DNA from: an uncultured bacterium
Lineage (GTDB): Bacteria; CSSED10-310; CAZUFC01
Length of the DNA stretch: 51,064 bases
Reading direction: 5' to 3'
Assembly (NCBI GenBank): GCA_964619725.1
Contig: CAZUFC010000030.1
Location: 19,804-70,867, forward strand
The translations under genes and the position numbers were made by a program. The notes under the pieces were generated by a model. The model was not told the origin of the DNA, did no database searches, and saw only the letters and a list, made by a program, of their open reading frames with translations. Of this stretch, positions 1,447 through 50,419 are shown in pieces; the first letter of the stretch is position 1; each line of letters starts with the position of its first letter.

Positions 1447-3885
1447 CTATTCGTTTTCATTTTTTTTGCCTGCAGAGGCGAATTCCTTCAATTTATCGGC
1501 AAACCGTCGCAGTTTCCGGTCGACCAGGTAATTAACGGTGTCTTCCGGATAAGCGCCTTTTTCATCTTTTTCGCCGGCTTTTTTCCCCGTGAGAAGCTCG
1601 ATGCCTTCATCCACATGTCCGACAGGCCATACATGGAATTTGCCTTCTTTGACCGCTTCAATGACCTCTTCTCTGAGCGTCAGGTTATCCCTGTTGCTTT
1701 CGGGAATGAGAACGCCCTGGTCGCCGGTGAAGCCTTTATCCCTGCAGACGTAAAAGAAACCTTCGATTTTCTCGTTAATGCCTCCGACAGCCTGTATATT
1801 ACCGTATTGGTCCACGGAACCGGTAACCGCTATGCCTTGTTTCAGGGGCAAATCCGACAGAACCGAAAGGAGCGCGTAAAGCTCTGCAGACGAGGCGCTG
1901 TCGCCTTCCACGCCCTGGTAACTTTGTTCGAACACCAGTCTGGCAGCCAGCGATAACGGTATCTCGTGAGCGTATTTCTGGGAAAGGTAACCGCTCAAAA
2001 TGAGCACGCCTTTGCTGTGTATAGGACCGCCCAGTTTAGCTTCCCGTTCGATATCGATAATCCCTTCTCTTCCCGGAGCTATTCCCGCGGTTATCCTGGA
2101 AGGTCTGCCGAACTGGTAATCGCCGACATTGATGACCGACAAACCGTTGACCTGCCCTTTTTCGCTTCCCTCAACCTGGATGTGGAGAACGTCCCGCTTT
2201 ATCATCTCCTCTATTTTTTCCTGAATAAGGTTTGAACGATACCTTTTCTGATCAATGGCTTTTTTAATGTGAGAGGCCTCGATGTTATCCGCATTATCCT
2301 TCGAAGCCCAGAATGAAGCTTCCCTGATGACGTCCGCCACCGCTCCGAAATGAGTGGATATTTTTTTCTGATCACCCGCCAGTCTGACAGCATGTTCAAG
2401 CAATTTCGCAGCGCCGCCTGAATCAAGATGCTTCAATTCCTCCTTGCGACAGAAAGCGCTCACGGCGGTCATAAATTCGCAAATCTTCTGCTCATTGCAA
2501 TCCATAACCACATCATAGTGCGCCTTTACCTTGAACAATTCCGGCACGTCCTGGTCGTATGCCTGCATGATCAGATACACTAGAGGCCTGGCTATCAGCA
2601 ATATCTTGATATTCAACGGTATCGGCTGAGGCCGCAAACTCTTCGTCGACATGAAACCTAATCTTTCGCTTAATTCCTCCATTTCAATCTCACCCGACCT
2701 GATCGCTCGTTTTATACTTTCCCAGCTCATGAAATTGCGCAAAACATCTTCTGCCTGCAATACCAGGTAACCGCCGTTAGCCTGATGAAACGCTCCGGGT
2801 TTTATCAAAGTATGGTCGGTTATGAATGCCCCCATCTTCATTTCCTTCTCTATGCGTCCGAAAAGATGAGGATAACTGGGATTCAGCTCTGTAACCACAG
2901 GAGCGCCTTCCTGTTTACTGTTGTCTATCAAAACGTTGACCTTGTATTTTTTGAACATCTCATTCGTTGAATTCTGCATCTTGCCCCCGAGTTGAAGGGT
3001 TTGTCCGCCTCCTCCGCCTCCCTGCTGTTTCTGCTGCTGTTCCTTTTTGAACGCCGATATGTTTTCCACTATGTCCTCTTTGACTTCATCCAGGTATGCC
3101 GTAACATCTTCCAGGTCCGAATATTTTTCTTTGAAATCCTCGATTATGCCGCCCGTCAGATTCAAAGCCACCTGCTTGTCGAGCTCCTGCAGTTTATCCC
3201 GAGCCTCACGCTCCTGCTTCCGTATCTTCTTGGTCGCTTCATTCAACTCCTTCTGCAACTCCTTACGGCGTTCGTTATATTCCTCACGCTCCGATTCCGG
3301 CAGTTTCCGGAATTCATCCTCGTTCAGCTTCTTTCCCTCCTTCGTCGGAAATATCATTATGCCCATGGGACTCGCCTGTAATGTAAATCCAGCCTTCTCC
3401 GCCTTCTCCTTCAGTTCGTCCGATACTGCTTCCCGCTTCATGTTCAATGAATTCGTTATCTCTTCACGTTTGGCCGTATATTCCTCACTCTCAAACGCTA
3501 CAGGCAAATCACGGCGTATGTTGTCGATCAGTTCCTCCATGTCCTTTTTAAACTCACGCCCTTTGCCCGGAGGCAAAGATACCGCCTTGGGCTTATAGGA
3601 ATCCTCGAAATTATTCACATAACACCAGTCCCAAGGCGTTTCCTTTTTCTCCGCTATCTTCTCCAGAAAATTCTCCACCGTGCTCATCTTACCTATTCCA
3701 GGAGGTCCCACCACAAATATATTGAATCCCTCGTCGCCTATTTCAAGGCCGAATTGCAAGGCCGAAACCGCTCGCTCCTGACCTATTATTCCGGAAACAT
3801 GATCGCATTCCTCTGTAGTAATGATTCCTAATTCTTCTGGATCGAAAGTCCTGTAAAGTTTCTCCGCCGAAATCTCCTGTACCAT
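1447..3885 (-). CDS. Lon-like protease with an AAA+ module bearing a degenerate Walker A motif and a long coiled-coil insertion, followed by a C-terminal S16 peptidase domain (LonC-like).
   Basis: The N-terminal region reads GPPGIGKMST, a Lon-type Walker A with M in place of S/T. A charged coiled-coil insert of about 200 aa includes a QQQKQQGGGGGGQ tract. The C-terminus carries the Lon dyad context DSASSAELYALLS ... GGINEK. I place the start at ATG 3885, where an SD (aaggag) lies 6 nt upstream. The ORF track extends it to a TTG at 3924. Confidence 0.8.
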   Translation of the reverse strand: MVQEISAEKLYRTFDPEELGIITTEECDHVSGIIGQERAVSALQFGLEIGDEGFNIFVVGPPGIGKMSTVENFLEKIAEKKETPWDWCYVNNFEDSYKPKAVSLPPGKGREFKKDMEELIDNIRRDLPVAFESEEYTAKREEITNSLNMKREAVSDELKEKAEKAGFTLQASPMGIMIFPTKEGKKLNEDEFRKLPESEREEYNERRKELQKELNEATKKIRKQEREARDKLQELDKQVALNLTGGIIEDFKEKYSDLEDVTAYLDEVKEDIVENISAFKKEQQQKQQGGGGGGQTLQLGGKMQNSTNEMFKKYKVNVLIDNSKQEGAPVVTELNPSYPHLFGRIEKEMKMGAFITDHTLIKPGAFHQANGGYLVLQAEDVLRNFMSWESIKRAIRSGEIEMEELSERLGFMSTKSLRPQPIPLNIKILLIARPLVYLIMQAYDQDVPELFKVKAHYDVVMDCNEQKICEFMTAVSAFCRKEELKHLDSGGAAKLLEHAVRLAGDQKKISTHFGAVADVIREASFWASKDNADNIEASHIKKAIDQKRYRSNLIQEKIEEMIKRDVLHIQVEGSEKGQVNGLSVINVGDYQFGRPSRITAGIAPGREGIIDIEREAKLGGPIHSKGVLILSGYLSQKYAHEIPLSLAARLVFEQSYQGVEGDSASSAELYALLSVLSDLPLKQGIAVTGSVDQYGNIQAVGGINEKIEGFFYVCRDKGFTGDQGVLIPESNRDNLTLREEVIEAVKEGKFHVWPVGHVDEGIELLTGKKAGEKDEKGAYPEDTVNYLVDRKLRRFADKLKEFASAGKKNENE

Positions 3886-3928
3886 GGTCTTTCTCCTTTC
3901 CGAGTATGGAAATTTAACCGTCAAAAAT

Positions 3929-19303: not shown

Positions 19304-19306
19304 TTT

Positions 19307-21198
<1,892 letters not shown>

Positions 21199-26306: not shown

Positions 26307-26932
26307 GAAAGAGAGGAGAAAAATCCGCCTGTTGGAGGACAAAAACCAAGAATCTCACAAATCAAAAGAATAAGAGGGGCGATATTGCCGTAAACCCAAC
26401 ATCATTCAGCCATTAAAAACCCGACGAACACATTCAATATCGTCCGGCGGCAACTAAAGCAAAGGGCAGAACCAAACGTTCTCGGCATAGTCAAAACCAT
26501 TGAATCCGCCGCCAGACGTCAGGGCATTAAAAACCATCAAGGGAACGCGGCAGGATGCCGCTTTCAAAGGCGCCCGCAGAATCCGATCAGGTGTATATGG
26601 ACCGACAAAACTAATTGAATGATTACAACCCGAACTTTTAAGATAGTTCCCGAACATCGAAGAGAAAAAAGCGGATCAGGATGCAAAACTGGCTCATAAG
26701 ATTACAGCGGATAGCCCAGACAACAAGGATTGATGGAAAAAAAGATTGCGATATTAAACGCGTCAAGGCCTGCGGTAAAAGCTAATGTCGACGATGACGT
26801 TGACCGGACGAAAACCGCGAATCTCGTGAATCTCAGGAATAAGAGGGGAGATATTGCCGCGCATCCACATCGTTCATCTTTCCGGCATCAATAACATCCT
26901 CGAAAGCGTTCACCGATGAAGATTTTCACATT

Positions 26933-27075
26933 TGTCAAAAACACTTCTCTTAAGGTTGCAATTCGACAAAATATCCCATCATTTTGTTTTGATTTCGATC
27001 CCTATACCGGCCCCCGATTACTGAAACAAACCGTCATAAGTTTTTAAAGATGTGTAACCCGGTTTGACCAGTCCC
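26933..27075 (-). repeat. Family B MITE-like element, full copy in reverse orientation with a minimal core of about 3 units.
   Basis: The reverse complement reads aattagggactggtcaaaccgggttacacatctttaaaaacttatgacggtttgtttcagtaatcgggggccggtatagggatcgaaatcaaaacaaaatgatgggatattttgtcgaattgcaaccttaagagaagtg. Confidence 0.8.
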
Positions 27076-27326
27076 TAATTTTTACAGTCTTGATCGCTTT
27101 ACGGAGGCGGCAAATCTGATAAAGCCAAAAATCATGGGGCGGCAGGCGATTAGAAAAACGACCTCACATACGCTAATACAGAAGCGTGATAAAAGCGTTG
27201 TACACCATCAAGCGTATATTCCGTCGAATTTTGCGAGTAAAAGGCTTTTTTGTCCATCGCCCTTTGTAAATAATTTACTTTTCCATGGCGTCGTTGAATT
27301 CTTCAATGAAAAACTTGCATGCAGGA

Positions 27327-27701
27327 CTATGATGCCCGTACTCTCTGTTTGATCCTGTTGTTTATTTCTTTTTTCAAGTCGTCTAAATCTTCTGTTTTGC
27401 GGACGAAAGCATCAGCGCACCAGGTTCTGAAATTGCAACTGAAATCGTTACAATTCGAGTGCAGAATAATGGGCGTATCGCGTTTACTGCCGGCAATCTG
27501 CTGAATGGCCTGCAGACCTGATTCGAGCGATTTTGAGATGTCGAAAACTACCACGTCGGGCGCATGAATATCCACCAGGTCTGGAGCAATGTCATAATTT
27601 CCCGTCATTATAAGGCGGTGGCCGTTTGTTTTAAGATTTTTTTCGTATATCCTCCGATATACGTCATCTTTATCCGCCACAAGGATTTTTGCCATAACCA
27701 T
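27327..27701 (-). CDS. Stand-alone response regulator receiver domain.
   Basis: The receiver fold is KILVADKDDVYRRIY...VVVFDISK. I place the start at an ATG with an aggagg SD at 27701. The ORF track begins at 27716. Confidence 0.7.
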   Translation of the reverse strand: MVMAKILVADKDDVYRRIYEKNLKTNGHRLIMTGNYDIAPDLVDIHAPDVVVFDISKSLESGLQAIQQIAGSKRDTPIILHSNCNDFSCNFRTWCADAFVRKTEDLDDLKKEINNRIKQRVRAS

Positions 27702-27857
27702 GTACTCCTCCTGCAACGATCGATATGCGTCTCGACCGCCGATCGAAAAATATTCTCCTTACTTCACCGAGATATTTTTATAGCCCATACGTTCCTTCCG
27801 GAAAATTTTCCCGGATTAAAACCGGAACCTGCAAGGAAAGATTAAGCAATTCTCGTG

Positions 27858-27891
27858 CCCATTAATTTTCGCGTACGCGAAAATTAATGGG
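27858..27891. promoter_or_regulatory. Perfect 34-bp palindrome, 16-bp arms and a 2-bp centre. It is a candidate operator.
   Basis: cccattaattttcgcg ta cgcgaaaattaatggg. The 2-nt centre is too short for an RNA hairpin loop, so a dimeric DNA-binding protein site is more likely. It shares the TTTCGCG/CGCGAAA motif with the 197-330 inverted repeat. Confidence 0.5.
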
Positions 27892-35206: not shown

Positions 35207-35224
35207 CAGGCACAATTATTGCTT
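35207..35224 (+). promoter_or_regulatory. Sigma-54 -24/-12 promoter, aGGCACa-N4-TTGCT.
   Basis: GG 35209-10 and GC 35221-22 have the exact N10 spacing. It is a near-consensus match to TGGCACG-N4-TTGCW. The predicted TSS at about 35233 lies upstream of the Hsp20 gene. Confidence 0.55.
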
Positions 35225-35358
35225 CCTAATTCGGTGAGAGTTATTGATTTTTTGATCATAAAAATTCTGCGGGCATAATGAACTTCTGCGATACACAAAG
35301 TAAAAAAATTATCAACATATTGGAAAACAGAAGGCGTTATGTTTATGGAGAAACAAAA

Positions 35359-35838
35359 ATGGAAATAAGCGCCAATGAATTCAGAAGAAATACAAACAAT
35401 GGAAGAGCGAACCGTTTTCCGAAATTTGAAAAACCGGAAAACGGAGCTTCAAAACCTGAGCCCCGAAACAGTTGGCTGCCGCTGACCGACATTATGGAAG
35501 CGGACACCAAGGTTATTGTTTTAGTCGAACTGCCGGGAATGGAATCGGATCAGGTCGAACTGGAAATCGAAAATAATTTTTTAACGATTCGTGGGGAGAA
35601 ACCCAACGATCTGTTTGAAACGGATCATTATCTTCATAATTGTGAGAGGTACAGCGGAATATTTCAAAGGATTTTTTTGCTTCCCCACAATCTGGTTGTA
35701 AAAAATGCTCACGCCTGGTTTAAAAACGGTTTACTGACCGTCGAGATTCCAAAGTGGGGCGGAGATACGCCGTATTTCAGCAACGTAAGAAGAGCCGGGC
35801 AAATGGAACATCCGAAACACACAATTCGAATCGAATGA
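35359..35838 (+). CDS. Hsp20 / alpha-crystallin family small heat-shock protein, second copy.
   Basis: The alpha-crystallin domain is WLPLTDIMEADTKVIVLVELPGMESDQVELEIENNFLTIRGEK...GLLTVEIPK. I chose the ATG with a ggag SD, giving 159 aa. The ORF-track start at 35278 has no SD. Confidence 0.8.
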   Translation: MEISANEFRRNTNNGRANRFPKFEKPENGASKPEPRNSWLPLTDIMEADTKVIVLVELPGMESDQVELEIENNFLTIRGEKPNDLFETDHYLHNCERYSGIFQRIFLLPHNLVVKNAHAWFKNGLLTVEIPKWGGDTPYFSNVRRAGQMEHPKHTIRIE

Positions 35839-36235: not shown

Positions 36236-36517
36236 ATGAAGATAAAACACGTGGAAGGAAAAGACCGGGGCAAAATAATGTTGTATGCCATCAGCACATG
36301 CGTCTGGTGTAAAAAAACCAAAAGGTTGCTGGACGAACTGGGTGCAGCATACGATTATATAGATGTGGACACCCTGTCGCAGGAAGAAAAAGAACAAACA
36401 AAAAAGGAGATGCAGGCTTGGAATCCGCGACTGTCTTACCCCACTCTTATCATCAATAGTGAAGCCGTAGTGGGGTACAAGGAAGACAAAATAAGGAAAT
36501 TGCTCGAAAAAGATTAA
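36236..36517 (+). CDS. Glutaredoxin-like / NrdH-like small thiol-disulfide protein.
   Basis: The 93-aa ORF has a CVWC active-site motif near the N-terminus (MLYAISTCVWCKKTK) and a thioredoxin-fold pattern (..YPTLIIN..). An aaaggatg SD is present. Confidence 0.8.
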   Translation: MKIKHVEGKDRGKIMLYAISTCVWCKKTKRLLDELGAAYDYIDVDTLSQEEKEQTKKEMQAWNPRLSYPTLIINSEAVVGYKEDKIRKLLEKD

Positions 36518-36541
36518 CAGGAGTCTGTTAAGGAGAAAAAT

Positions 36542-37063
36542 ATGGCTGAAAACAACGACATTCCTCAGAAGCAAATCGATGATCTTTATGAAAAGCTGGA
36601 CAGAGAAGCGGAGGAGTCCGGATATCACCTGAATCCGGATGAAGAATTCACCAAAGAACTCGTCAAGGGATTGATCACAAACGAGAAAAGGTACGGATAC
36701 CCGGCATGCCCCTGCCGCCTGGCCGAAGGCGATAAAATAGAAGACCTGGACATCATCTGTCCCTGCGATTACAGAGATGCGGACCTGAATGACTACGACG
36801 CGTGCTATTGCGCTCTTTATGTGACGCAGGAGGTTGTAGAAGGCAAAAAAGAAGCCGCTTCCATACCTGAAAGACGCCCGCCCAGAGAGGAAAGAAGTCA
36901 GATCAAAAGGCAGAAACCGGCCCAAAGCGCGTCTGAACTGCCCTACACTGTCTGGCGATGCAAGGTTTGCGGTTACCTCTGCGCAAGAGAACAACCGCCC
37001 CAGGTCTGCCCCGTATGCTTCGCCAAAAAAGACAGGTTTGAAGTCTTTATCAGAAGCAAGTAA
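36542..37063 (+). CDS. Ferredoxin:thioredoxin reductase catalytic-subunit-like domain fused to a C-terminal rubredoxin domain (FTR-Rd fusion).
   Basis: The FTRC cysteine pattern is [24 protein letters not shown]...DACYCALY, i.e. CPC-x16-CPC-x..-CxC. The C-terminus reads WRCKVCGY...CPVCF, a rubredoxin CxxCG...CPxC pattern. A ggagaaaaat SD is present. Confidence 0.8.
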
Positions 37064-37180
37064 TGCGACTGAGCAAATGGGTATACATTTTGTCCCGGCA
37101 ATAAATCGGCCTATTGAAATAGCGTTGCCAAAGCCGGCTGTTATGCACATTTGACACGCGACCCCGGATTTCGGGAAGAA

Positions 37181-37290
37181 TCAGACCGGGTTTATACTAC
37201 TTTCAAGACTTTTGACGGTTTGTTTCAGTAATCGGGGCCGGTATCGGAATCGGGGGTGAAATCGGTAACGAAATCGAAACAAAATTCATT
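37181..37290 (+). repeat. Family B MITE-like element with a short core of about 6 units and a degenerate R arm.
   Basis: tcagaccgggtttatactactttcaagacttttgacggtttgtttcagtaatcggggccggtatcggaatcgggggtgaaatcggtaacgaaatcgaaacaaaattcatt. Confidence 0.8.
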
Positions 37291-37383
37291 AACCGCAGCG
37301 GGGCTGTGAAAGGTGAAGAAACGATAAAGGTTAATTCCAGGGCCAAATGCCTAAATTCGACAGAATAAGCAAACTGCACAGGG

Positions 37384-37604
37384 TAACGTGAATAAAAACT
37401 CATTAAAATTTTAACCCCTCACGGAAGGTAAAGAAAAAAACTTCACCAAACCTATCAGGGGGATTTGAAAGGGTGCGCTGAACTGAAAGATTCATTCTGC
37501 TAAAGCAGGCTGGAAGCCTGCGCTCCCAGTAACCCCTCGTAATTGGGAATTCAGTTAGCGTGAATAAAAACTCATAAAAATTGAAACCCCTCACGGAAGG
37601 TAAA
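37384..37604. repeat. Two direct copies of a roughly 50-bp unit, 171 bp apart, in an 800-bp non-coding region.
   Basis: 37384-37433 is gtaacgtgaataaaaactcattaaaattttaacccctcacggaaggtaaag. 37555-37604 is gttagcgtgaataaaaactcataaaaattgaaacccctcacggaaggtaaaa. Confidence 0.7.
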
Positions 37605-38113
37605 AAATACAGCTCAATACAGCGTTCTGCCTAATAGCCGTCCATAAGCCTGAATCGTAAGTTTGATGCTTATGGACCTTTTTTCCGCTAATAAGTTTTT
37701 GTCCATAAACGGTGAATTTCCCCAAATGCTGCGTCAGGCTGCGGATTTGCTCAGTCAATGTATAAACAATACCCCTGCCTCGCAAATCCTTGCCTTCCTT
37801 GTCTTAAGAAAAATTCGCCCGTTTATGGATCAAAAACCCAAGTGGCTGTCCAGCATTAAATTTTGAATCGAGATTCGAGTTTGTGGACAGACACTAATAA
37901 GGTTATTATCCGGATATTTCAAAAGAAACAATGCCGTTTCAATCAGGTATGCTGAAAATATGCACACCATTTATCGTGAACCCTCACAGTTCTATTTTGG
38001 CTGAAAAGTTGCATAACGAAAATCAGGATGAATCGGGGAAATTTCTTCTGTTACAGCAGTCTTGAACAACAGCCGGAAATATCCCGCAAAGTTTAATCAA
38101 AAGGAGCAACAGT

Positions 38114-39478
38114 ATGAAAAATTATGATTATATTATAGTCGGCAACGGTTCGGGCGGGGCTCTGGCGGATGCGGCCGTTTCTCATAATCTGAAAATCGCG
38201 GTTATCGATAAAAAGCCCATCGGCGGGACATGCGAAAATTTCGGTTGCATTCCGTCCAAGATGCTGATGCTGCCGGCTCATCGTATAATGGAAATAAAAG
38301 AAGCCGCCAGATTGGGCATCAAAACGGAAATAACCGATACGAACTTCAGCGAAGTTATGGAAAGAATGCGGATACACCGGAAAGCGACCCAGGACCGCCG
38401 GTATGATGCTGTAAGAAATTCCCCTCCGATGGATTTTTATTTCGGCGAAGCGGAATTTACGGACGAATATACGTTAAGCATAAACGGCAAAACGCTCCGC
38501 GGCGAAAAAATAGTGATAGCGGCCGGAGCCCGTCCTTCACATCCGCCGATTGAGGGAATCGACAGCCACCCTACTTTGAATAATGAAACCGTCCTTGAAT
38601 TGAAACGTCTTCCACGCAGCATGATCATCATCGGCGGCGGATACATTGCAGCGGAATACGGACATTTTTTTTCAGCCTTCGGCAGTGAAGTAACGATCAT
38701 TGAACAGGGAAATCGATTATTGTCGAATGAAGAGCCGGAAATTTCAGAAGCGTTGGAGAAGGCTCTTGGAGATAGACTGAATATAGTTTTGAACGTTAAA
38801 GCTGAAAAAATGGAAGGCAATGATTACGGGCTCAGAATATCGGGACGGGATGAAAAAGGCGACTTGATGAAAATTGAAGCGGAAGAGCTGCTCATTGCGA
38901 CAGGTCGGATTTCTAATGCTGATGTATTAAAAGTTGGAAACACAGGCGTCGCCGTGGACGATCGCGGTTTCATCAGAGTGAACGAAAGGCTCGAAACAGG
39001 AAAAGAGGGCATCTGGGCGCTCGGAGACATTATCGGCAAGCAGATGTTCAAACATGTCGCCAATCGCGAGGCCGGCGTAGTCTTTGAAAACAGCATTCAC
39101 GGCGAAAAAATGGAGATGGACTACGATTCCATTCCTCATGCCGTCTTTACATATCCTGAAATAGCTTCACTCGGATACACGGAAAATCAGGCGCGAAAGA
39201 AACACGACATATGGGTCGGAAGAGCCGGTTATTCTGATACCGCCTGGGGACTGGCCATGCGGGAAGAAGAAGGATTCGTAAAAATAATTGTGGACCGGGA
39301 AAGCAGAAATGTCATCGGGGCCCACATTTTCGGACCCAACGCTTCAATGATAATCCAGGAGTTGATCAATGCCGCATCCGGCAAACATGACATAAGCGCT
39401 CTGGCAAATCCCATGCACATCCATCCGGCATTGCCTGAAGTGATAACTTCTGCGTTGTATAACCTGGAGGAAGTATAG
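38114..39478 (+). CDS. Class I pyridine-nucleotide disulfide oxidoreductase (dihydrolipoamide dehydrogenase / glutathione-reductase / mercuric-reductase-like flavoprotein).
   Basis: The FAD motif is IIVGNGSGGA and the redox-active CxxxxC is GGTCENFGCIPSK. The NAD(P) motif is IIGGGYIAAE. A C-terminal dimerisation domain with HIHPALPE is present. An aaaggag SD is present. Confidence 0.85.
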   Translation: MKNYDYIIVGNGSGGALADAAVSHNLKIAVIDKKPIGGTCENFGCIPSKMLMLPAHRIMEIKEAARLGIKTEITDTNFSEVMERMRIHRKATQDRRYDAVRNSPPMDFYFGEAEFTDEYTLSINGKTLRGEKIVIAAGARPSHPPIEGIDSHPTLNNETVLELKRLPRSMIIIGGGYIAAEYGHFFSAFGSEVTIIEQGNRLLSNEEPEISEALEKALGDRLNIVLNVKAEKMEGNDYGLRISGRDEKGDLMKIEAEELLIATGRISNADVLKVGNTGVAVDDRGFIRVNERLETGKEGIWALGDIIGKQMFKHVANREAGVVFENSIHGEKMEMDYDSIPHAVFTYPEIASLGYTENQARKKHDIWVGRAGYSDTAWGLAMREEEGFVKIIVDRESRNVIGAHIFGPNASMIIQELINAASGKHDISALANPMHIHPALPEVITSALYNLEEV

Positions 39479-39529
39479 AATTCCGGGAATGATCAATAAC
39501 CGGAAACTTGAGCTCCCTGGTCTTCCTCA

Positions 39530-41404
39530 TCAAAACCTGTATCCTATCGAAACCTCGACGATATCGGCCGTATAATCATTGAAATGGTGCAACTCTTCTT
39601 CATAATCTTCGTATCTGTATTCGGTTCTTATGAGCGCGCCTCCAAACATGGTCCATTCAATCCTGCCGCTTAACCGCATTTGACTGACAGGCCATGATTC
39701 ATCATTATCCATTACGACGAAATTTCCGCTTATGCTTCGACCTTCCTGGAATTCATACTCGACCATTCCATCAAGGATATGATTATCGGCTTCGTATTGA
39801 ACCGGCCATTGGAAAGCTCCTCCGGATGTGATGATTTCCTGGTCTATTTCGCGTTTGATGTTCCTGTATGAGTAACCCAGGTTCATAGTGAGACCGCTTT
39901 GATGATAAACGGCCCTGGCATTAAGATGATCGGAATCGGATTCCCAATCAGAATCATCGTTCACGGTTCTTTTGATCAGAGCAGTCGCAGTTATGGAAAA
40001 AAGTGAATTTATCCTGGTTTTAGCCTTAAGATAGAACCGGTGATATTCACCCGGAGCTGCCGTAACGTAAGGATCGTCCGCCTGTCCGTATTGATAATCT
40101 CCGGTTAATTTGAACTTTTGGATGGAGCTCCATTTGACGTGAGAAAACAAACCCAGGCGTTCGGTAACCGGCGGTTCCGATTCATATTCATATATCCCAT
40201 GACTGATATCCCGCGACTGGTACCTCGTTCCTAAACTCAGGAACAACCCAGGCGCCGGCGAATATTGTAATCCGGCTTCGCCTCTGTCTATATCATAATC
40301 CCAGTCCGTTTCAGTATCGCTTCCATCCATGTTCAACCATCCTTCCTGCGAAAGATCGCGCCGGTCGAACAGTCCTCCTAACGCCCATCGATCGCTTAAC
40401 CGGTATGATAATTCAACCTCGTAAGCCGTAATATCCCGCTCAACTTCTCCCTCTCCGCTGAAGAAAAAATCCGAATATGATCCCGAATAGCCGATTCCTT
40501 CCCCCTCCTCAGAATAATCATATTCCATATCCAGGTCTTCCCGGCTTACAATCGCATTAATGGTTAATCTTTTCACAGGATTCACAATTACCCGGAAAAT
40601 GTGATTGTAACTCATGAAGTCATACGGCATATTGAGAGCAAAATCGAACAACTCCGTAGCCCCACCTTCGTTTTCATCATCCTGTCCTGGAGAAGGTCCC
40701 GGAAGAAACGCCGAGAAATTGTTTTCATAATCCCTGATCCTTTCCTCCAAAACGAAACTGACTCGCTTAAACTTAATGTTCACTCCTGCTGAGTATTCAT
40801 ATTTCGTTTCATCGATCGGTTTATCGAGAATGAACAGGTCTCTTCCGTAGGAATAGGTGATTTCACTTATTCCTTCTTTGACGTATCTGGAAAAATTCAT
40901 GAATAGATCGAACCTGCTGCCCAACCGCACCTTCAGTGCAGCATCGTCGTATTCCCTGTCGAAATTGAAGGTGTGAAGGTCCCCTTCATTATTAATATGG
41001 TAATCGCTCAGTTCCTCCGGCCAAAGTATATCGTCATAGCTGTAAGCAGCCTTTCTTCTTTTATATCTGAACTGATAGCTTCCATATTTTCTTATGGTAA
41101 CTCCTGCCCTGTAAAAGGGATCGCCGCCTAAATCAGAAAGGCTTATTTCCATCTTGTCCGCAAGTTTTTTGAGCGACCCGGCCGGTTTGCAACGTAAATA
41201 AGCTTCCATCAGCCGAAATCCATCCTGCAGGTTGACGTGCTGATCATATTTTGATTCTGCGCCTCCGACATCGACGAACCGGTAACCAGCGACCAGCAAC
41301 CCTGAAAAACGGCTTTGCTCTTCCGACTGCGCCTTAAGGTAATTAAACGGCCCGGCTGCCGCCAGGAGCAATCCAAAAATAACAAATAATTTGTATGTTT
41401 TCAT
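39530..41404 (-). CDS. Outer-membrane beta-barrel protein, MtrB/MtoB/PioB-like in size. It is the presumed porin partner of the adjacent decaheme cytochrome.
   Basis: The roughly 624-aa mature-sized protein has a signal peptide (MKTYKLFVIFGLLLAAAGPFNYLKAQ). Amphipathic beta-strand character alternates along its length and it ends in an aromatic residue (...SIGYRF). I chose the internal Met start at 41404 so it does not overlap the cytochrome gene. It lies 24 nt downstream of the decaheme gene. Confidence 0.65.
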   Translation of the reverse strand: MKTYKLFVIFGLLLAAAGPFNYLKAQSEEQSRFSGLLVAGYRFVDVGGAESKYDQHVNLQDGFRLMEAYLRCKPAGSLKKLADKMEISLSDLGGDPFYRAGVTIRKYGSYQFRYKRRKAAYSYDDILWPEELSDYHINNEGDLHTFNFDREYDDAALKVRLGSRFDLFMNFSRYVKEGISEITYSYGRDLFILDKPIDETKYEYSAGVNIKFKRVSFVLEERIRDYENNFSAFLPGPSPGQDDENEGGATELFDFALNMPYDFMSYNHIFRVIVNPVKRLTINAIVSREDLDMEYDYSEEGEGIGYSGSYSDFFFSGEGEVERDITAYEVELSYRLSDRWALGGLFDRRDLSQEGWLNMDGSDTETDWDYDIDRGEAGLQYSPAPGLFLSLGTRYQSRDISHGIYEYESEPPVTERLGLFSHVKWSSIQKFKLTGDYQYGQADDPYVTAAPGEYHRFYLKAKTRINSLFSITATALIKRTVNDDSDWESDSDHLNARAVYHQSGLTMNLGYSYRNIKREIDQEIITSGGAFQWPVQYEADNHILDGMVEYEFQEGRSISGNFVVMDNDESWPVSQMRLSGRIEWTMFGGALIRTEYRYEDYEEELHHFNDYTADIVEVSIGYRF

Positions 41405-41427
41405 TATTATCCTCCCCGGAATGCCCT

Positions 41428-42312
41428 TTATTTGCCGAAATAAGACGACAGATTGGAACCGTGTATTGCAGCATGGCAATCAGTGCAATTCGATTGCCTG
41501 GTAAATCTCTGATGCCAGACCGGGACTTCAGCATGGCAACTATAGCACAAGTCCGCAACGCTCTGAAACAGCAGCAAATGCCGGTTTACGGAACCGTGAG
41601 GATCATGACAGCCGGTACACCCTTCTATTAAAACGCCTCCATGTTCATACAGGTAAGGCCCTCGTTTGAAAGCATGACACTTGTAGCATATCTGCGGATC
41701 GTAACCGCTCAGGTTCCTCCTCCTTGACGGTCCGTGCACCTCATGACATGATGTGCATACCATGAAACCTTCCTTCAACGGATGATGCTCATTCAAATTA
41801 AATCGCGCATATATCGAAGGATGACACTCTCGACACGATTCAACTGTGCTTTCCTTGAGCAGATAACCGGCGACCTCGTTTTCGGAATGGATGCTGTGAC
41901 ATCTCATGCAATCCGTACCGGTGAATCCATGAACGGAACTGAAAAACCTCGATGTTTTTTTCTTATGACATTGAACGCATGCAGCGGTTTTTGAAATAGG
42001 CGTTTCCTTCTCGCTGAACGTCGTCATTCCTGCTGTATTCGTATAATCCTCCACATGCGCTTTATATCCCTTATGACATGCCGCACAACTGAATTCGACA
42101 GATTCTCCGCCGTGGGCCTTTTTACGATCCAGAGAAACATGAGGGTTATCTTTGATCGAAGATACGACTTCATCATGACAACCCGCGCATAATCGGACAT
42201 CGGAGCTTTCCTGCGCTGCCGACGGAAAGTAAACGATATGCAACACGATCACGGTGAATATAAATGCCTGCACGACTGTGACATAATGTGTGCGGCGCAT
42301 GAGGAAATTCAT
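41428..42312 (-). CDS. Periplasmic decaheme c-type cytochrome, MtrA/MtoA/PioA/DmsE-like.
   Basis: The 294-aa ORF has a signal peptide and exactly ten CxxCH motifs: CAGCH, CAACH, CVQCH, CMRCH, CRECH, CTSCH, CYKCH, CTGCH, CYSCH and CTDCH. Confidence 0.85.
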   Translation of the reverse strand: MNFLMRRTHYVTVVQAFIFTVIVLHIVYFPSAAQESSDVRLCAGCHDEVVSSIKDNPHVSLDRKKAHGGESVEFSCAACHKGYKAHVEDYTNTAGMTTFSEKETPISKTAACVQCHKKKTSRFFSSVHGFTGTDCMRCHSIHSENEVAGYLLKESTVESCRECHPSIYARFNLNEHHPLKEGFMVCTSCHEVHGPSRRRNLSGYDPQICYKCHAFKRGPYLYEHGGVLIEGCTGCHDPHGSVNRHLLLFQSVADLCYSCHAEVPVWHQRFTRQSNCTDCHAAIHGSNLSSYFGK

Positions 42313-42354
42313 TTCAGCCCTCCCTTGATTTGATGTTGAATCTGCTTATTCTTT

Positions 42355-43155
42355 TCAAGAGTGAGAAAAAACGATGACCGCGTCAGGATCGATCACCTGA
42401 AAAGTAAAAGATTCCGTGAAATACAACCATACTTCCTTGCTGGAATGCTGTTCGTATCCCATTGAGAAATCATGTCCGAGAGTCAGACGAAAACTGCCTT
42501 CCCGTTGAGATGCCAGAAACATATCGTCGATATGAGGAGAAAATATTACCTCGCCTCCTATCAAGTCCTTTATCTGACGGTGCAGCGGATATCCTTTCAC
42601 AGTAGCCATCATCCTGCTCCACATATCGGGAGACATTACAAGCGAACAGGGTCCCGGTATGCCGGCTTTCCTGAATTTGATCATCCCCTCGGAAAGTTTT
42701 TCCATTAATGACTCAGCTCCGTCCGGATAAGGAATCACCTCATGCCCCGTTCCCTTCGCCAATCCCTCTATGCCGCCTGTATGAAAACCTTTATATACAG
42801 CCTTTTCCTCGAATGCGGCTATCTTGCGCGCAGCCTCCTCCATAGGTTCAATATCCGCATCCTCAGCCCCTCTGCTTATGTTGTCCAATTCCCATACATT
42901 CAGCTTAAAAGAAATACGGGTTTCCATCAGCGGTTTTACCTGGTGAAGACCGTACAGGACCTCCCGCTTGGGCTCCGATTCCAAAACCTGCAGACGGCCT
43001 GTCGATACTACTCCGAAATCCCATCCGTGAGGTCCATCTATCTCCACGAACTTTCTCGCCGTCAACGAGGTCCTGAATATTTCTCCCGCTCGTCCCCGTA
43101 ATTCCTCCCAGGCCCTATCGGATATGGGCGCTAACGATTGTCTCAATATGTCCAT
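42355..43155 (-). CDS. Family 1 encapsulin (linocin M18-like) nanocompartment shell protein.
   Basis: The 266-aa ORF is colinear with Thermotoga maritima encapsulin. MDILRQSLAPISDRAWEELRGRAGEIFRTSLTARKFVEIDGPHGWDF aligns with [47 protein letters not shown], and the match continues through the C-terminus (..TESFTFQVIDPDAVIV). Confidence 0.9.
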   Translation of the reverse strand: MDILRQSLAPISDRAWEELRGRAGEIFRTSLTARKFVEIDGPHGWDFGVVSTGRLQVLESEPKREVLYGLHQVKPLMETRISFKLNVWELDNISRGAEDADIEPMEEAARKIAAFEEKAVYKGFHTGGIEGLAKGTGHEVIPYPDGAESLMEKLSEGMIKFRKAGIPGPCSLVMSPDMWSRMMATVKGYPLHRQIKDLIGGEVIFSPHIDDMFLASQREGSFRLTLGHDFSMGYEQHSSKEVWLYFTESFTFQVIDPDAVIVFSHS

Positions 43156-43175
43156 TGGTTTCCTCCTTCTGTTTT

Positions 43176-43535
43176 CTAAGGTTTGCCTATCTTAAGGTCA
43201 GGGTTGTCGCTATCCTCTGATTCCGGTTCTTCATTTTCTTCCTGCATCTCCTCCAGCTCCGTTATGTCTCCTTCCTTAAACAGGTAAGTCCGCATCTCCT
43301 CATCCCAGCCCGGCATATTCCTTCTCAACCATTCCAGAATCATGCACGCATGCTCGATCTCCTCATCCCTGTTATGAGACAGAATTTTCTTCATCGCCTC
43401 ATCCGAAGCCGCATCAACCCTCTGGTTGTACCAATCCACAGCCTCGATTTCTTCTTTCAGACTGTGCAATGCACGTGTACAATCTCTGGTTAAATCCCTT
43501 AATTCATCAGTCGGTTCATGATATTCCGCCATTTT
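43176..43535 (-). CDS. Encapsulated ferritin-like cargo protein (EncFtn) with a C-terminal targeting peptide.
   Basis: The protein is about 119 aa. ExxH ferroxidase-type motifs are present (EEIEAVDWY; DEEIEHACM). An acidic linker is followed by a C-terminal ...DLKIGKP, which resembles the T. maritima cargo peptide GGDLGIRK. I start it at an ATG with an aaggag SD. The ORF track starts at 43613. It lies 20 nt upstream of the encapsulin gene. Confidence 0.75.
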   Translation of the reverse strand, partial: KMAEYHEPTDELRDLTRDCTRALHSLKEEIEAVDWYNQRVDAASDEAMKKILSHNRDEEIEHACMILEWLRRNMPGWDEEMRTYLFKEGDITELEEMQEENEEPESEDSDNPDLKIGKP

Positions 43536-43584
43536 TGCTGCTCCTTCCCGTTGAAAATACCAATAACTGAGTCTCTGAAAAAAG

Positions 43585-43604
43585 AAGCAAACGCCGTGCC
43601 TAAT
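43585..43604 (-). promoter_or_regulatory. Sigma-54 -24/-12 promoter, aGGCACG-gcgt-TTGCT, in front of the EncFtn-encapsulin-cytochrome-porin operon.
   Basis: The minus-strand sequence aggcacggcgtttgct matches TGGCACG-N4-TTGCW at every position except the first T. It lies about 50 nt upstream of the cargo-gene ATG. Confidence 0.6.
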
Positions 43605-43621
43605 TCTCAACACTGAATCAA

Positions 43622-43790
43622 CCAGGATTTCTCATATAACCTGTTACGAACGGCCATATCCCCGCACCTTTAAGCCCTGCTCACTTCGGACCTGATCAAC
43701 ATAACGCCCCCATGCTTCCGCAGTCCTCCGGTCCGCCACGCTAGAATCTGCGGGAATCTGAACGCTCTCACTACAATTTTATATGAAAAA
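43622..43790. repeat. Repeat family C copy 2.
   Basis: It contains atgcttccgcagtcctccggtccgccacgctagaatctgcgggaatc and the shared flanking blocks. It aligns with 4478-4625. Confidence 0.7.
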
Positions 43791-44099
43791 TCCGGGCTAA
43801 CGCACTGCTGCTGATAAAAACTTTGTATTTCATCCCGAAATCCTTTTGAATAAAAATTGAATTAGAAATTTTACAATTTTTTTTAGCAATTATTCTAATT
43901 TCCGACCGGCAACATAATCGTTCAGCCTGAACAAAAACTGAGGAACATTCGCAGGTCCACGGCTTAAATCCTTTTATGCAGCGCTTTCCAGGATGAGTTT
44001 GACTTCTTCAAGTGAGTCCCCTAGATTTAGAAAGGACTTAATGATGAGTTCCAGGGGAATGAATTCCATGCGCAAGAACCGGTTCTTAAGTCAGTATCT

Positions 44100-47000
44100 A
44101 TGGAAGTATCCGTATTGGGATATCTTTTGCGTACTAGACGAAAAAACATTTTGATCACAGGAATGAAAAGCGACACAATGAATCATAAAGAAGAAAAAAT
44201 AAAATTCAGTTACAGGGAATCGGGAATAATAATCCTGGCATTCGGCGCATTATATCTCATCAGCCGTTATAATTATTTGCTGTTTCATACATTATCGGAG
44301 GGGTTCAGCATAGCTATTGCTCTGGCCATATTCATTTTTGCCTGGCATTCCCATCGGATGATGAAAAACGATTTCTTCACGGTAATCGGGGTAGCTTACT
44401 TATTCGTCGGTTTGCTCGATCTGCTGCATACCCTGGCTTACCCCGGCATGAGCGTGCTGGCCGGTTCATCCACAGATTTGGGCGCTCAGCTATGGATATC
44501 TGCCCGTTTTATGGAAGCGGCTTCGCTGGGAATAGCCCTATTTTTTCTGAAACGCCGGACGAACAGGGAACTGATTTTCACAATTTACGCCCTCGTAACC
44601 GCGCTGCTCATCACCACCGTTTTCACCGGTTTCATGCCGGCCTGTTTTGTTGAAGGACAAGGGCTGACTCCTTTTAAGACAACCGTCGAATATCTCATCT
44701 GCTTTATTTTAGCTGCTGCCGCTTTTTTTCTTTATAAAAACCGTGAAGCCATTGATCACAGCGTTTTCATTCTCATTTTTGCTTCCCTGCTGGTCACTGC
44801 TCTCGCTGAAATCCTTTTTTCTTTCTACTCGAATCCTTACGACCTGGCCAATCTCTCGGGACATTTTCTTAAAATAATTTCTTTTTATTTAATTTACAAA
44901 GCCATAATATGGGTAGGTTTCACCACGCCCTTCGGACTTCAGTTCCGTGAACTCCGCCAGAATGAAGAAAAACTGAGAAAGGCCCTGGCGGAAAGAGAAG
45001 CCGCTCAAAGAAAAACAAAACGGGAACAGGGTAAATTCCTCAATATTCTGGACAGCATAAAAGATGGGATTTACATGGTTGATTCGGAATGCAACGTCGT
45101 ATATGTGAATCCGGTCATTAAACGGGAATTCGGCATGGTTGACGAAAAAAAGTGCTATGAATACCTGAACGGCCTGAGAGAACAATGCCCCTGGTGCAAT
45201 ATGGACAAAGTTATGAGCGGGGAAACCGTACGATGGGAATGGGAGGTCCCGGAAACGGGAAAAATTTATGATATTATAGAATCGCCGGTGACAGACTCCG
45301 ACGGAAGCATGTTGAAACTCAAAATACTGCGTGACGTCACGGAAATGAAGCACGCCGAGCAGCAGATCCGCGAAAGCGAAGAACGATATGATCTCATACT
45401 TGATAGCGTGGAATTGGGCATATGGGATTGGGACCTGCAGAAAAACACAGTAGTATGGAACAAACAGATGTACGGTCTTCTAGGGATGACTCCCCATCAT
45501 GGCGAAACAGACCCGGATATCTTTTTTGAACGCATTCACTCCGAAGACAGAGAGCGTATCCAACAAGAAGTGAAGTCTCTTCTGGCAAACGGCCATTTTC
45601 TGGATACGGAATTAAGAGTCTTAACGTCGGAAGGTGAAACGCTCTGGCTCAAAAGCAAGGGTAAACTTTACCGGAATGAAGAGGGAGAGCCGGTCAGGCT
45701 GCTCGGCGTCAATTATGATATTACTGCAGCAAGGGAAGCTGAAGAAACGATTAAAAGTTTATCGCGTTTTCCTGAAGAAAACGCCAATCCAGTTCTCCGA
45801 GTCAGCCTGGATGCGAAGCTGATGTATGCGAACAAGGCGGCAGCTCCTTTACTGGAAGGCTGGGGCATTGACGTTGGTGAAGAAGTTCCCTCATTCATCA
45901 ATGAGCAGATAGAATCCGCATTCAAGCAAAAATCTGTGGAGAGTTTTGATTTCCAGATTGGAGAGCTTCATTTTACGATTTCCTGTGTTCCTATACTTCA
46001 GGCAAAATACGCGAATCTTTACGGCATGGATATTACGGAAAAGAAAATAATAGAGCAACGGGAAAAGGAAGCCGCTGCCCTGGCGACTGCTTCAAAAACT
46101 GCGCTCGATGCCATGCAGGCTATGGGTGAAGGAATAGCCGTAATTCAATTGGATGGAACCATAACTTCGGTCAATCCGGCTCTGACCCGTTTAATCGGTT
46201 ATGAGGCGAACGAATTGCTGGGATGGAATATTGAAGAAATATTACCTAAATTATTTAAAGAGTATAGCCTGCAGACGACTTCCGAAGCCTGGATGAAACT
46301 GAAGCAGGGGCAGGCGCCCGTGAATCCGCCTATCAATATTATTCCTAAATCAGGAACGTCCAAAAGCGTACTGCCGACTGTTTCCTTCATTAGAAAAGAA
46401 AACAATGAACCTATTGCCGTAGTGCTTTCACTCAAAGATATTTCTCCCATACTCAAAATGCAGGAAGAATTGAAGCAGAGCGAGAAACTTTTCCGTCTGC
46501 TTGCTGAAACGATTGAAGACGTTTTCTGGATGCGTTCCACGGACTTTGAAGAGATTCTTTATGTCAGTCCGGCATACGAGAAAATCTGGGGACGCAGCCG
46601 GGAAAGCCTATACAAGGCCCCGCACTCATTGATCGATTCGGTATATCCTGGAGATCGCGATAAACTTACGTCAAAAATGTCCCGTAGACTTGACGAAGTT
46701 CAACGACTGGAATACCGCATAATTCGTCCTGACGGAGAGATCAGGTGGATACGGGACCGCACATTTCCCGTCACTGATGAAAATGATGAACAAATCGGCA
46801 CAGTAGGCAATTCGACCGACATAACCGACCTGATTGATATCCAGAATTCACTGGAAAAAAGCAAAATAATGCTGGACGAGGCTCAACGGATCGCCCATCT
46901 GGGCAACTGGGAATGGGATTTAATCACGGACGAGATCACCTGGTCTGATGAAACTTATAAGATTCTAGGTTTTGAATCAGGTAAAGCTCGCCCTGCCTAC

Positions 47001-47960
47001 GATTTGTTCATGAAGATCGTGCATCCCGAAGACAGGAACATGGTGCAACAAGAGATAGAAAAGACGCTGGAAAACAACGAAAGATACAGCATTGACCATC
47101 GGATCGTGAAACAAAACGGAGAAGTTCGTCATGTTCACGAAGACGGCGAAACGATGCTCAATGAAGAGGGAAAACCTGTCAGGATGATCGGGACCGTGCA
47201 GGACATCACGGAGCGAGTCAGGCTGGAACGCATGCTGCGGACGCAGGACAAACTGGTTTCCCTGGGAAGAATCACCGCGGGAATAGCTCATGAGATCAGG
47301 AATCCGTTGATGGGGATGAAAATTTATATGGATATATTGAAACGCATTCATCAGGAAGGCAGGACGGCGAAACCGGAAGAGATAGAAGAAATCATGGGTC
47401 AGTTGCATGGGGCGAACAAGAAGATAGAATCCGTGATCAAAAGGGTGATGGATTTTGCGAAACCGTCGACGCCCAGAATGCAGGATACCGACATCAATAA
47501 AGCCGTCAGGGAGGCCGTCGAATTATCCAGCGTTTTTCTGCGTAAAAAAGGGATAAAGATGACGAGTGAATTTGAGTCTTCATCACCCAGGAGTCAGGCT
47601 GATTCGCAGATGATCAGCCAGCTCGTACTCAATTTATTATCCAATGCTGCCGAGGCTTTGAGCAAAACAGAAGGAAAGAAGCAAATCAGAGTATCCACGA
47701 AGAAATTAGACGGTAAAATCCAAATCACGGTCAGCGATTCGGGGCCGGGCATTCCTGAAAACGTCCGGCAGCACATTTTCGAACCCTTTTTCACGACCAA
47801 AAAAGAGGGAACAGGCATTGGCCTGAGTTTGTGCAAACGGATCGTAGACGATCATCGAGGCTCTCTGTTCATAGAGGAGAACGAAGGGGGCGGCACAAAA
47901 TTCATCGCTGTTCTGCCGATGCCGGATAATGTCAGCGCCGATGATAAAAACAGCCAGTGA
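44100..47960 (+). CDS. Large membrane-anchored multi-PAS sensor histidine kinase.
   Basis: The 1286-aa ORF has an N-terminal polytopic membrane domain with about 7 TM helices and at least 5 PAS/PAC segments. The HisKA motif is GIAHEIRNPL and the HATPase_c motif is DSGPGIPENVRQHIFEPFFTTK..GTGIGLSLC. Confidence 0.9.
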   Translation: MEVSVLGYLLRTRRKNILITGMKSDTMNHKEEKIKFSYRESGIIILAFGALYLISRYNYLLFHTLSEGFSIAIALAIFIFAWHSHRMMKNDFFTVIGVAYLFVGLLDLLHTLAYPGMSVLAGSSTDLGAQLWISARFMEAASLGIALFFLKRRTNRELIFTIYALVTALLITTVFTGFMPACFVEGQGLTPFKTTVEYLICFILAAAAFFLYKNREAIDHSVFILIFASLLVTALAEILFSFYSNPYDLANLSGHFLKIISFYLIYKAIIWVGFTTPFGLQFRELRQNEEKLRKALAEREAAQRKTKREQGKFLNILDSIKDGIYMVDSECNVVYVNPVIKREFGMVDEKKCYEYLNGLREQCPWCNMDKVMSGETVRWEWEVPETGKIYDIIESPVTDSDGSMLKLKILRDVTEMKHAEQQIRESEERYDLILDSVELGIWDWDLQKNTVVWNKQMYGLLGMTPHHGETDPDIFFERIHSEDRERIQQEVKSLLANGHFLDTELRVLTSEGETLWLKSKGKLYRNEEGEPVRLLGVNYDITAAREAEETIKSLSRFPEENANPVLRVSLDAKLMYANKAAAPLLEGWGIDVGEEVPSFINEQIESAFKQKSVESFDFQIGELHFTISCVPILQAKYANLYGMDITEKKIIEQREKEAAALATASKTALDAMQAMGEGIAVIQLDGTITSVNPALTRLIGYEANELLGWNIEEILPKLFKEYSLQTTSEAWMKLKQGQAPVNPPINIIPKSGTSKSVLPTVSFIRKENNEPIAVVLSLKDISPILKMQEELKQSEKLFRLLAETIEDVFWMRSTDFEEILYVSPAYEKIWGRSRESLYKAPHSLIDSVYPGDRDKLTSKMSRRLDEVQRLEYRIIRPDGEIRWIRDRTFPVTDENDEQIGTVGNSTDITDLIDIQNSLEKSKIMLDEAQRIAHLGNWEWDLITDEITWSDETYKILGFESGKARPAYDLFMKIVHPEDRNMVQQEIEKTLENNERYSIDHRIVKQNGEVRHVHEDGETMLNEEGKPVRMIGTVQDITERVRLERMLRTQDKLVSLGRITAGIAHEIRNPLMGMKIYMDILKRIHQEGRTAKPEEIEEIMGQLHGANKKIESVIKRVMDFAKPSTPRMQDTDINKAVREAVELSSVFLRKKGIKMTSEFESSSPRSQADSQMISQLVLNLLSNAAEALSKTEGKKQIRVSTKKLDGKIQITVSDSGPGIPENVRQHIFEPFFTTKKEGTGIGLSLCKRIVDDHRGSLFIEENEGGGTKFIAVLPMPDNVSADDKNSQ

Positions 47961-49572: not shown

Positions 49573-49911
49573 ATTTTTTGCCTCCTTGCCGTGGCGTTTA
49601 CCGCTTCCGGAAAAAAACTCCTGTTCATGCGATTTCTTTCTTCGCCCGGTTCATGTTAATTGTTCCATAAAAAGCGTTTCCTGTTTTCTTTAATCCGTTT
49701 TTCCCCAGAAAAAATAATCGCGAGTCTCCGATAATGAAGAATCCGGGCCCTATACTCAGGAGCAAAAAATATACCAGAAGGCACGGTTTTTGCTGTTATA
49801 AAATCGAAGGATTTTTATATTCGGAATTCAATGGAAGTCGTTCCATATCATAATTGTCCGGATGTCGATCGGTAAGCGACACTATAACTTCAACATTTCA
49901 GGAGGTTAAAG

Positions 49912-50419
49912 ATGAACGGAAGAAAAGGAATTGCCTGGGGAATCGTCTTAGTCGTCACGGCGGCAGCGGTAAGTGTTCTGGCAGGCGGCATGATGCCGAA
50001 ACCGGAAGGATAGGATTTCTGGGAATACATTTCGCAAAAAGACCCTTACACGGAATGGAAACATTGGCCAGGTTATGAAGAAATGTATACGGGAAAAAGT
50101 CCGCATGGAGCCTATCTGGAGCTTTACGTCAACGATAAGGCTTACAAGGCGATCCAGGAGGACAAAAAAACGATGTCCTACGGCGCCGTCATCGTAAAAG
50201 AAAATTACGCTGAAGATAAAAAAACCCTCAAGGCGATAACTCCCATGTATAAAGTCGAAGGATTCGCCTGAAGACGGCGACTGGTTCTTGGCCAAATACG
50301 GACCGAAAGGAAAAGTAATGGCGGCAGGACAGGTCAAGGGATGCATCGATTGCCATAAAGCCATGCAGAAAAATGACTGGCTGTTTACAGGTAAAAAGAA
50401 AATAGAGCATAGTCATTGA
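49912..50419 (+). pseudogene. Cytochrome P460 / cytochrome c'-beta family gene disrupted by an in-frame TAG and a frameshift.
   Basis: An aggagg SD precedes the ATG at 49912 and the signal peptide MNGRKGIAWGIVLVVTAAAVSVLAGG. A TAG stop lies at 50011-50013. The same frame continues as DFWEYISQKDPYTEWKHWPG...VIVKENYAEDKK.. to a TGA at 50269. The +1 frame then carries DGDWFLAKYGPKGKVMAAGQVKGCIDCHKAMQKNDWLFTG to 50419. The C-terminal heme motif context resembles Nitrosomonas P460 (..NWAFY...CAACHKENAKTDMVFTQ). Confidence 0.65.

Follow-up and report, generated by a model that had tools for sequence, protein, structure and literature searches.

Can an encapsulated-ferritin nanocompartment and a porin-cytochrome conduit of the outer membrane be the products of one operon, and if so, what would such an operon couple? 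The question is raised by positions 39530-43604 of a 51,064-nucleotide (nt) stretch of DNA (the window, from the first letter of which all positions are counted) in contig CAZUFC010000030.1 of an uncultured bacterium (GenBank assembly GCA_964619725.1). Four open reading frames (ORFs) lie there on the minus strand, encoding in order the ferritin-like cargo EncFtn, an encapsulin, a decahaem cytochrome and an outer-membrane barrel. The explanation that we favour, at slightly better than even confidence, is that these genes would form a co-transcribed unit in which the coupling is regulatory and each module works in a compartment of its own.

Organisation of the four-gene locus

The products, all encoded on the minus strand, are EncFtn, an encapsulated ferritin-like cargo of 118 amino acids (aa; 43532..43176), a family-1 encapsulin shell protein of 266 aa (43155..42355), a periplasmic, MtrA/MtoA-like decahaem c-type cytochrome of 294 aa (42312..41428) and an MtrB-like outer-membrane beta-barrel of 624 aa (41404..39530). 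An earlier examination made from the letters alone (the sequence-only reading) had described these genes as tightly packed; all four ORFs were indeed recovered, each behind a Shine-Dalgarno sequence, those in the gaps being AAGGAGG, AGGGAGGG and GGGGAGG. The shell gene begins 20 nt downstream of EncFtn, the cytochrome gene 42 nt downstream of the shell gene, and the barrel gene directly 3' of the cytochrome gene after 23 nt, so that only the last of the three spacings first given (20, 42 and 24 nt) needed correction. The barrel start was placed at ATG 41404, which agrees with the N-termini of homologues; the longer 649-aa version of this ORF results from a start at an upstream TTG and overlaps the cytochrome gene.

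A weak terminator-like hairpin (39502..39517, minus strand) closely follows the stop codon of the barrel gene and faces the convergent oxidoreductase gene. Within 39000-44200 no other terminator-like site lies between genes on the minus strand, and the total number of such sites was at chance level. The hairpin scan revealed none between the genes upstream of the barrel end, including after the encapsulin (enc) stop codon. Simple consensus scans, which non-consensus promoters could escape, likewise detected no sigma-70-like or sigma-54-like site in the 42-nt gap or the 3' end of enc, and no second sigma-54-like site emerged from the encapsulin-cytochrome gap even when three mismatches were allowed. 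The nearest sigma-70-like match (42284..42257) lies within the cytochrome coding region, and such matches occurred at chance frequency.

Two Logan contigs from run SRR7048225 were identical to the window, one over 41428-43773 (EncFtn, Enc and cytochrome) and one over 37869-41450 (the barrel and its neighbour). Because the former spans both Enc and the cytochrome as an exact match, the Enc-to-cytochrome junction is not peculiar to one assembler and was reproduced by a second assembly of the same reads. The GC content of the four genes (45-49%) falls inside the range of neighbouring genes, composition was uniform over the four genes, and comparison of GC content and codon usage did not clearly point to a recent transfer of either half. 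Judged from this layout, the four genes are most likely transcribed as one mRNA from the sigma-54 promoter upstream of EncFtn.

The sigma-54-type promoter and candidate regulators

The promoter motif AGGCACGGCGTTTGCT (43601..43586, minus strand) lies 53 nt upstream of the EncFtn ATG and differs by one mismatch from the consensus TGGCACG-N4-TTGCW, with the -24 GG and -12 GC elements correctly spaced. The chance of such a match was estimated by defining a site as having at most one mismatch with GG and GC kept, and by running 100 Markov simulations. By this definition the window contains three sites relative to 0.24 expected, and none of the simulations reached three; for the 568-nt intergenic region upstream of EncFtn, on the promoter strand, the expectation was approximately 0.0013 sites. 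The motif is thus statistically solid and unlikely to have arisen by chance, and the near-consensus promoter that the sequence-only reading had placed about 50 nt upstream of the first gene stands.

Enhancer-binding sites were sought as repeats upstream of the promoter, where weak AT-rich inverted repeats and nothing more were found. The 568-nt intergenic region is shared with a divergent gene (44100..47960, plus strand) whose product was assigned by Pfam as a MASE3-PAS-HisKA-HATPase sensor kinase, a candidate sensor for the operon. The stand-alone response regulator at 27716..27327 (minus strand) was considered as a displaced orthologue of the regulator that heads related operons in Aminicenantes, and was rejected on a match of E 0.029 over 28 residues.

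Other sigma-54-like motifs were noted just upstream of genes elsewhere in the window, namely at 27845-27860 (minus strand) before the same response regulator, at 35208-35223 (plus strand) before an Hsp20 gene (35278..35838), at 49779-49794 (plus strand) before a cytochrome-P460-like gene (ATG at 49913) and at 3931-3946 (minus strand) before a Lon-like protease gene (3924..1447). These further motifs suggest that the organism may possess a sizeable sigma-54 regulon of stress genes.

The EncFtn cargo and encapsulin shell

Profile searches placed EncFtn well above the cutoffs of both TIGR04535 (157 bits, cutoff 125) and PF22277 (6.9e-42, 141.6 bits, cutoff 27). Alignment with solved EncFtn structures (4e-30) brought the di-iron EExEH motif into register, and the segments EEIEAVDWY and EEIEH aligned with their counterparts in the solved chains, corresponding to the Glu plus ExxH ferroxidase motif. 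The ExxH motif has been described as defining for EncFtn (PMC11202242). At the end of the protein, an acidic linker is followed by a predicted C-terminal targeting peptide, PDLKIGKP (43179..43202, minus strand). Of the three closest homologues of EncFtn, two kept the pattern L-x-IG-K/R in their tails and one retained IG-R alone, and the linker was variable. We take the PDLKIGKP tail to resemble that of the Thermotoga maritima cargo.

The shell protein matched Linocin_M18 (PF04454) at 9e-77 and the family-1 equivalog NF041155 at 254.7 bits (cutoff 100), and it aligned over its full length (residues 1-263) with the T=1 shell of T. maritima (3dkt, 1e-63). Its sequence, like that of EncFtn, lacks a signal peptide, and both proteins are therefore predicted to be cytoplasmic. 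The pair conforms to the EncFtn-encapsulin nanocompartments of T. maritima, Rhodospirillum rubrum and Haliangium ochraceum (Family 1, Flp cargo) in its cargo-then-shell order, in the EExEH motif and C-terminal tail of its cargo, and in the full-length match of its shell to the T. maritima T=1 particle. It departs from them in being followed, on the same strand and after 42 nt, by the decahaem cytochrome and barrel genes and in being preceded by a sigma-54 motif, whereas in the closest EncFtn-Enc relatives the pair ends at a convergent gene.

The decahaem cytochrome and outer-membrane barrel

The translated cytochrome gene contains 10 CxxCH motifs in 294 aa and a hydrophobic N-terminal leader, the latter judged by eye, and no other ORF in the window has two or more CxxCH motifs. 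The protein narrowly missed the cutoff of the DmsE-family profile TIGR03508 (1.5e-53; 181.9 bits, cutoff 192.2), and its residues 42-288 aligned with solved MtrA (6r2q chain A) at 5.4e-28.

Assignment of the barrel, which carries a signal peptide and ends in GYRF, was less direct. It failed the sequence-profile test for MtrB/PioB, with no match to PF11854 at E<0.1 and 15.3 bits in relation to TIGR03509 (cutoff 240); among 21 homologues, however, four matched PF11854 (best 2.8e-10), and one homologue is labelled 'MtrB/PioB family' by NCBI. Sequence comparison with the PDB returned noise for the single sequence and no match for a 21-homologue profile, and profile searches tied the barrel to no unrelated outer-membrane protein family. 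Only the fold comparison, among the PDB comparisons made, linked it to MtrB, a barrel of 26 strands, which was its best structural match, as for a large MtrB-like barrel, at a sequence identity of 14-15%. The protein is best regarded as a distant porin of MtrB-like structure and not as a profile-level member of that family. The four identities first proposed thus hold, through Pfam, NCBIfam and solved-structure matches, with the qualification that the barrel was recognised by fold and not by family profile.

Relatives of the conduit

A scan of species-representative genomes retrieved 63 loci with relatives of the barrel (30-37% identity), mostly from Aminicenantes. The closest was found in a metagenome-assembled genome (MAG) of the Calditrichaceae (37% identity), with Aminicenantes at approximately 35%. 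When loci from other look-ups were included, 68 loci had a barrel match, and in 63 of these the gene immediately 5' of the barrel encodes a decahaem. In most Aminicenantes loci the barrel gene is immediately followed by that of a 10-haem cytochrome of approximately 720 aa, with further cytochromes beyond. An outer cytochrome was missing from about 10 loci, which bear the labels Calditrichaceae, Acidobacteriota, Thermoanaerobaculia, Gemmatimonadota and several Proteobacteria, and in a neighbour-joining tree the barrel of the window and the Calditrichaceae sequence grouped inside this two-gene clade.

Given this placement and the lack of another multihaem ORF in the window, the conduit has the architecture of MtoAB/PioAB, that is, two genes with no extracellular cytochrome. 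It shares with MtoAB of Sideroxydans lithotrophicus and PioAB of Rhodopseudomonas palustris TIE-1 the order of a decahaem followed by a barrel of approximately 620 aa and the lack of an MtrC-type cytochrome. The similarity is nonetheless weak, the barrel failing PF11854 and TIGR03509 and the decahaem narrowly missing the DmsE-family cutoff, and no MtoD, CymA or PioC-type partner is encoded in the window (it could lie elsewhere in the genome). MtoAB without MtrC is called by FeGenie as probable iron oxidation or possible reduction, MtrC being absent in iron oxidisers (PMC7005843). The locus differs from MtrCAB of Shewanella (6r2q) in having no MtrC gene and in the low barrel identity given above.

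The Aminicenantes clusters resemble the locus in having a homologous decahaem (36-46% identity) and barrel (30-35%), and a near-consensus sigma-54 promoter was found upstream of the decahaem in many of them. In the two annotated loci, L002 and L004, this promoter lies just before a small response-regulator gene heading the operon, and an NtrC-type activator adjoins; the full order is HAMP kinase, NtrC-type activator, sigma-54 promoter, response regulator, decahaem, MtrB-like barrel, the ~720-aa 10-haem cytochrome, an 8-haem cytochrome and ResB/CcsA. L002 additionally carries a large multihaem cytochrome with approximately 17 CxxCH motifs, and CxxCH counts indicated that the pattern of downstream cytochromes is repeated in about 40 other Aminicenantes loci. 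These clusters look like a complete, regulated extracellular electron-transfer island of this phylum. The locus in the window differs from them in that its promoter precedes the encapsulin pair, where that of the annotated loci precedes a stand-alone response regulator, and in that its barrel belongs to the two-gene clade, without the extra 10-haem extracellular and further cytochromes.

A strict sigma-54 motif was present in approximately 25 of the 63 loci and was seen in the three-gene Aminicenantes clade. Inheritance of sigma-54 control together with the conduit was considered and rejected, the motif being absent from the two-gene clade and from the closest encapsulin loci.

Rarity of the encapsulin-conduit pairing

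Synteny was compared across the 63 conduit loci and the three closest encapsulin loci (51-57% identity). Neither encapsulin nor EncFtn was encoded within up to 10 kb in any of the 63 conduit loci, and none of the three encapsulin loci encoded cytochromes, all being plain EncFtn-Enc pairs with a convergent gene next. A possible ferritin-type neighbour was found at just one further conduit locus, itself a singleton, in an Acidobacteriota MAG (L026, 7556-11818), where the decahaem and barrel genes share a strand with those of a secreted DUF2202 protein and a small PBP-like protein; we take DUF2202 to belong to the ferritin-like superfamily.

In the literature, no searchable paper mentioned both encapsulin and porin-cytochrome, and where encapsulins occurred together with decahaem or multihaem proteins or with extracellular electron transfer, these were incidental co-mentions alone. 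A large encapsulin survey mentions cytochromes solely for anammox shells with dihaem fusions, and outer-membrane components not at all (PMC8346489). The anammox system, that of Kuenenia stuttgartiensis, is the sole earlier described link between an encapsulin and a c-type cytochrome (PMC8346489), and it differs in that the shell itself carries a fused dihaem domain and takes a NIR-HAO enzyme as cargo, whereas here the decahaem is a separate, exported protein accompanied by a porin. The suspicion that co-transcription of the two modules is not a recognised arrangement was therefore upheld by the synteny comparison and the literature alike. The arrangement is unreported in the searchable literature; its components are known and the operon architecture is new. 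From the genes compared, the combination of promoter, encapsulin and conduit appears specific to this genome among the loci examined.

Proposed regulatory coupling and its alternatives

Mtr-type conduits carry electrons, not iron, and in an MtrAB-type complex (6r2q structure) a haem wire fills the barrel. In the regulatory explanation, EncFtn decamers within a T=1 shell of approximately 24 nm would oxidise and mineralise cytoplasmic Fe(II), whilst the decahaem would thread the barrel and allow electrons to cross the outer membrane, probably between the periplasm and either Fe(II)/Fe(III) outside the cell or a different external partner. With both modules under one enhancer-dependent promoter, cytoplasmic iron buffering would rise whenever the conduit is deployed. 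The setting may be one of abundant iron and active redox chemistry, with much Fe(II) entering the cell and much iron needed for haem, and raised sequestration would then serve against iron and oxidative stress and possibly also store iron from which haem is made. The link is proposed to be regulatory and not a physical iron pathway because the shell and cargo are predicted to be cytoplasmic and the cytochrome and barrel to act in the envelope. The surrounding genes fit a stress-response neighbourhood, the window also encoding glutaredoxin-like, ferredoxin-thioredoxin-reductase (FTR)-like plus rubredoxin-domain, disulfide oxidoreductase, Hsp20, hemerythrin, BON-domain and Lon-like protease proteins.

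Several observations weigh against this explanation. The pairing is absent from all the conduit and encapsulin relatives compared and, as a singleton, receives no support from conservation for functional coupling. The promoter can be traced to neither parent module, since no sigma-54 motif lies upstream of the two-gene conduit relatives or of the closest encapsulin loci. Within the 51-kb window, no enhancer-binding protein (GAFTGA) was found in any frame and no rpoN, nor was an inner-membrane electron carrier, an iron transporter or a quinol-linked cytochrome. Relative synonymous codon usage of the four genes correlated at a lowish 0.41-0.61 with the rest of the window, a measure that is uninformative at such short lengths. 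Co-transcription was read from sequence only.

The main rival is that an ordinary EncFtn-encapsulin pair for stress or iron storage has come to lie fortuitously beside an ordinary two-gene conduit, with the promoter perhaps shared and the products functionally unrelated. We regard this as doubtful, and it retains its standing because the arrangement occurred once among all loci examined and the nearest relatives of the halves are found in different lineages, the encapsulin being 51-57% identical to Bacteroidota-labelled sequences and the barrel 37% to that of Calditrichaceae and approximately 35% to those of Aminicenantes. Family 2 encapsulins have often been horizontally transferred (PMC8346489), although a like mobility of Family 1 is an assumption. 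Set against a fortuitous origin are the tight spacing with a Shine-Dalgarno sequence for each gene, the lack of terminator or promoter signals between the halves, the uniform composition of the four genes, and the iron or redox chemistry common to both halves. Similar evidence makes it improbable that there are two transcription units, in which the sigma-54 promoter would serve EncFtn-Enc alone and the cytochrome-barrel pair would be read from a promoter in the 3' part of enc or in the 42-nt gap. In every relative no encapsulin accompanies the decahaem-barrel pair, which there has its own promoter region, and a non-consensus promoter would be beyond the reach of the simple scans; yet no sigma-70-like or sigma-54-like site was seen where such a promoter is expected, the nearest sigma-70-like match being inside the cytochrome gene, and no hairpin follows the enc stop codon.

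A more literal coupling had been proposed in the sequence-only reading, in which a single module moves electrons or iron across the outer membrane and the iron, or the iron product of the conduit, is deposited in the shell. Of this, the operon-like layout and the promoter survive, and both modules are adjacent and iron-related, whilst a physical route by which iron would pass the outer membrane and reach the shell finds no support: shell and cargo lack signal peptides and would be cytoplasmic, MtrAB-type complexes conduct electrons and not iron ions, and the window encodes no inner-membrane iron importer or other inner-membrane link. Moreover, the Fe(III) that MtoAB/PioAB-type oxidation produces outside the cell is insoluble and remains there. 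As the arrangement is also a singleton, one physical module that moves and stores iron is not sustained, and we consider it very improbable. Equally little credence is given to the idea that the encapsulated mineral might act as a rechargeable redox store, an 'iron capacitor' buffering conduit electrons through reduction and re-oxidation of the ferric core, which would make the four genes a true functional unit; we consider this a long shot. On the barrel, the sequence-only reading would have been undone by an unrelated protein in place of an MtrB/PioB-family member; the family profiles PF11854 and TIGR03509 were indeed missed, but no unrelated outer-membrane protein was matched, MtrB was the best fold and four of 21 homologues match PF11854, so that the reading is not cleanly overturned.

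Other features of the window

A thiol-redox cluster (36236-39478, plus strand) converges on the operon. Its products are a glutaredoxin-like protein, a class-I pyridine-nucleotide disulfide oxidoreductase and a protein in which a homologue of the ferredoxin-thioredoxin-reductase catalytic chain is joined to a rubredoxin-like domain. The cytochrome-P460-like gene (49913-50300, plus strand) encodes a signal-peptide protein whose domain matched PF16694 at 5.9e-5, below the cutoff; the gene is interrupted by an in-frame TAG (50012-50014) and an apparent frameshift near 50270, and is either a pseudogene or affected by sequencing error. At 13237-21180 (minus strand), a Na+/H+ exchanger gene lies between the genes for the ATP synthase gamma, alpha, b/delta fusion and a subunits and that of a beta-like subunit; this atypical arrangement may point to an N-type or Na+-linked ATPase. 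The best matches of the LigA protein were 65-69% identical and bear Aminicenantes/Acidobacteriota, Desulfobacterota and Chloroflexota labels. In two regions of approximately 1 kb each (26310-27320 and 37100-38100) the ORFs do not exceed about 70 aa, and Rfam gave no match there or anywhere else in the window.

Implications

As a single occurrence in an uncultured organism, the locus offers a lead from which no principle can yet be drawn. It is a compact four-gene construct that is amenable to Shewanella or E. coli. If the regulatory explanation is true, the one-promoter operon would be the first genetic hint that an EncFtn compartment and a porin-cytochrome conduit are used together. It would thereby touch on the unsettled physiological question of the role of encapsulated ferritins in anaerobes, and on a second, namely how bacteria that exchange electrons with iron minerals may keep iron from becoming toxic in the cytoplasm or supply enough of it to their multihaem proteins.

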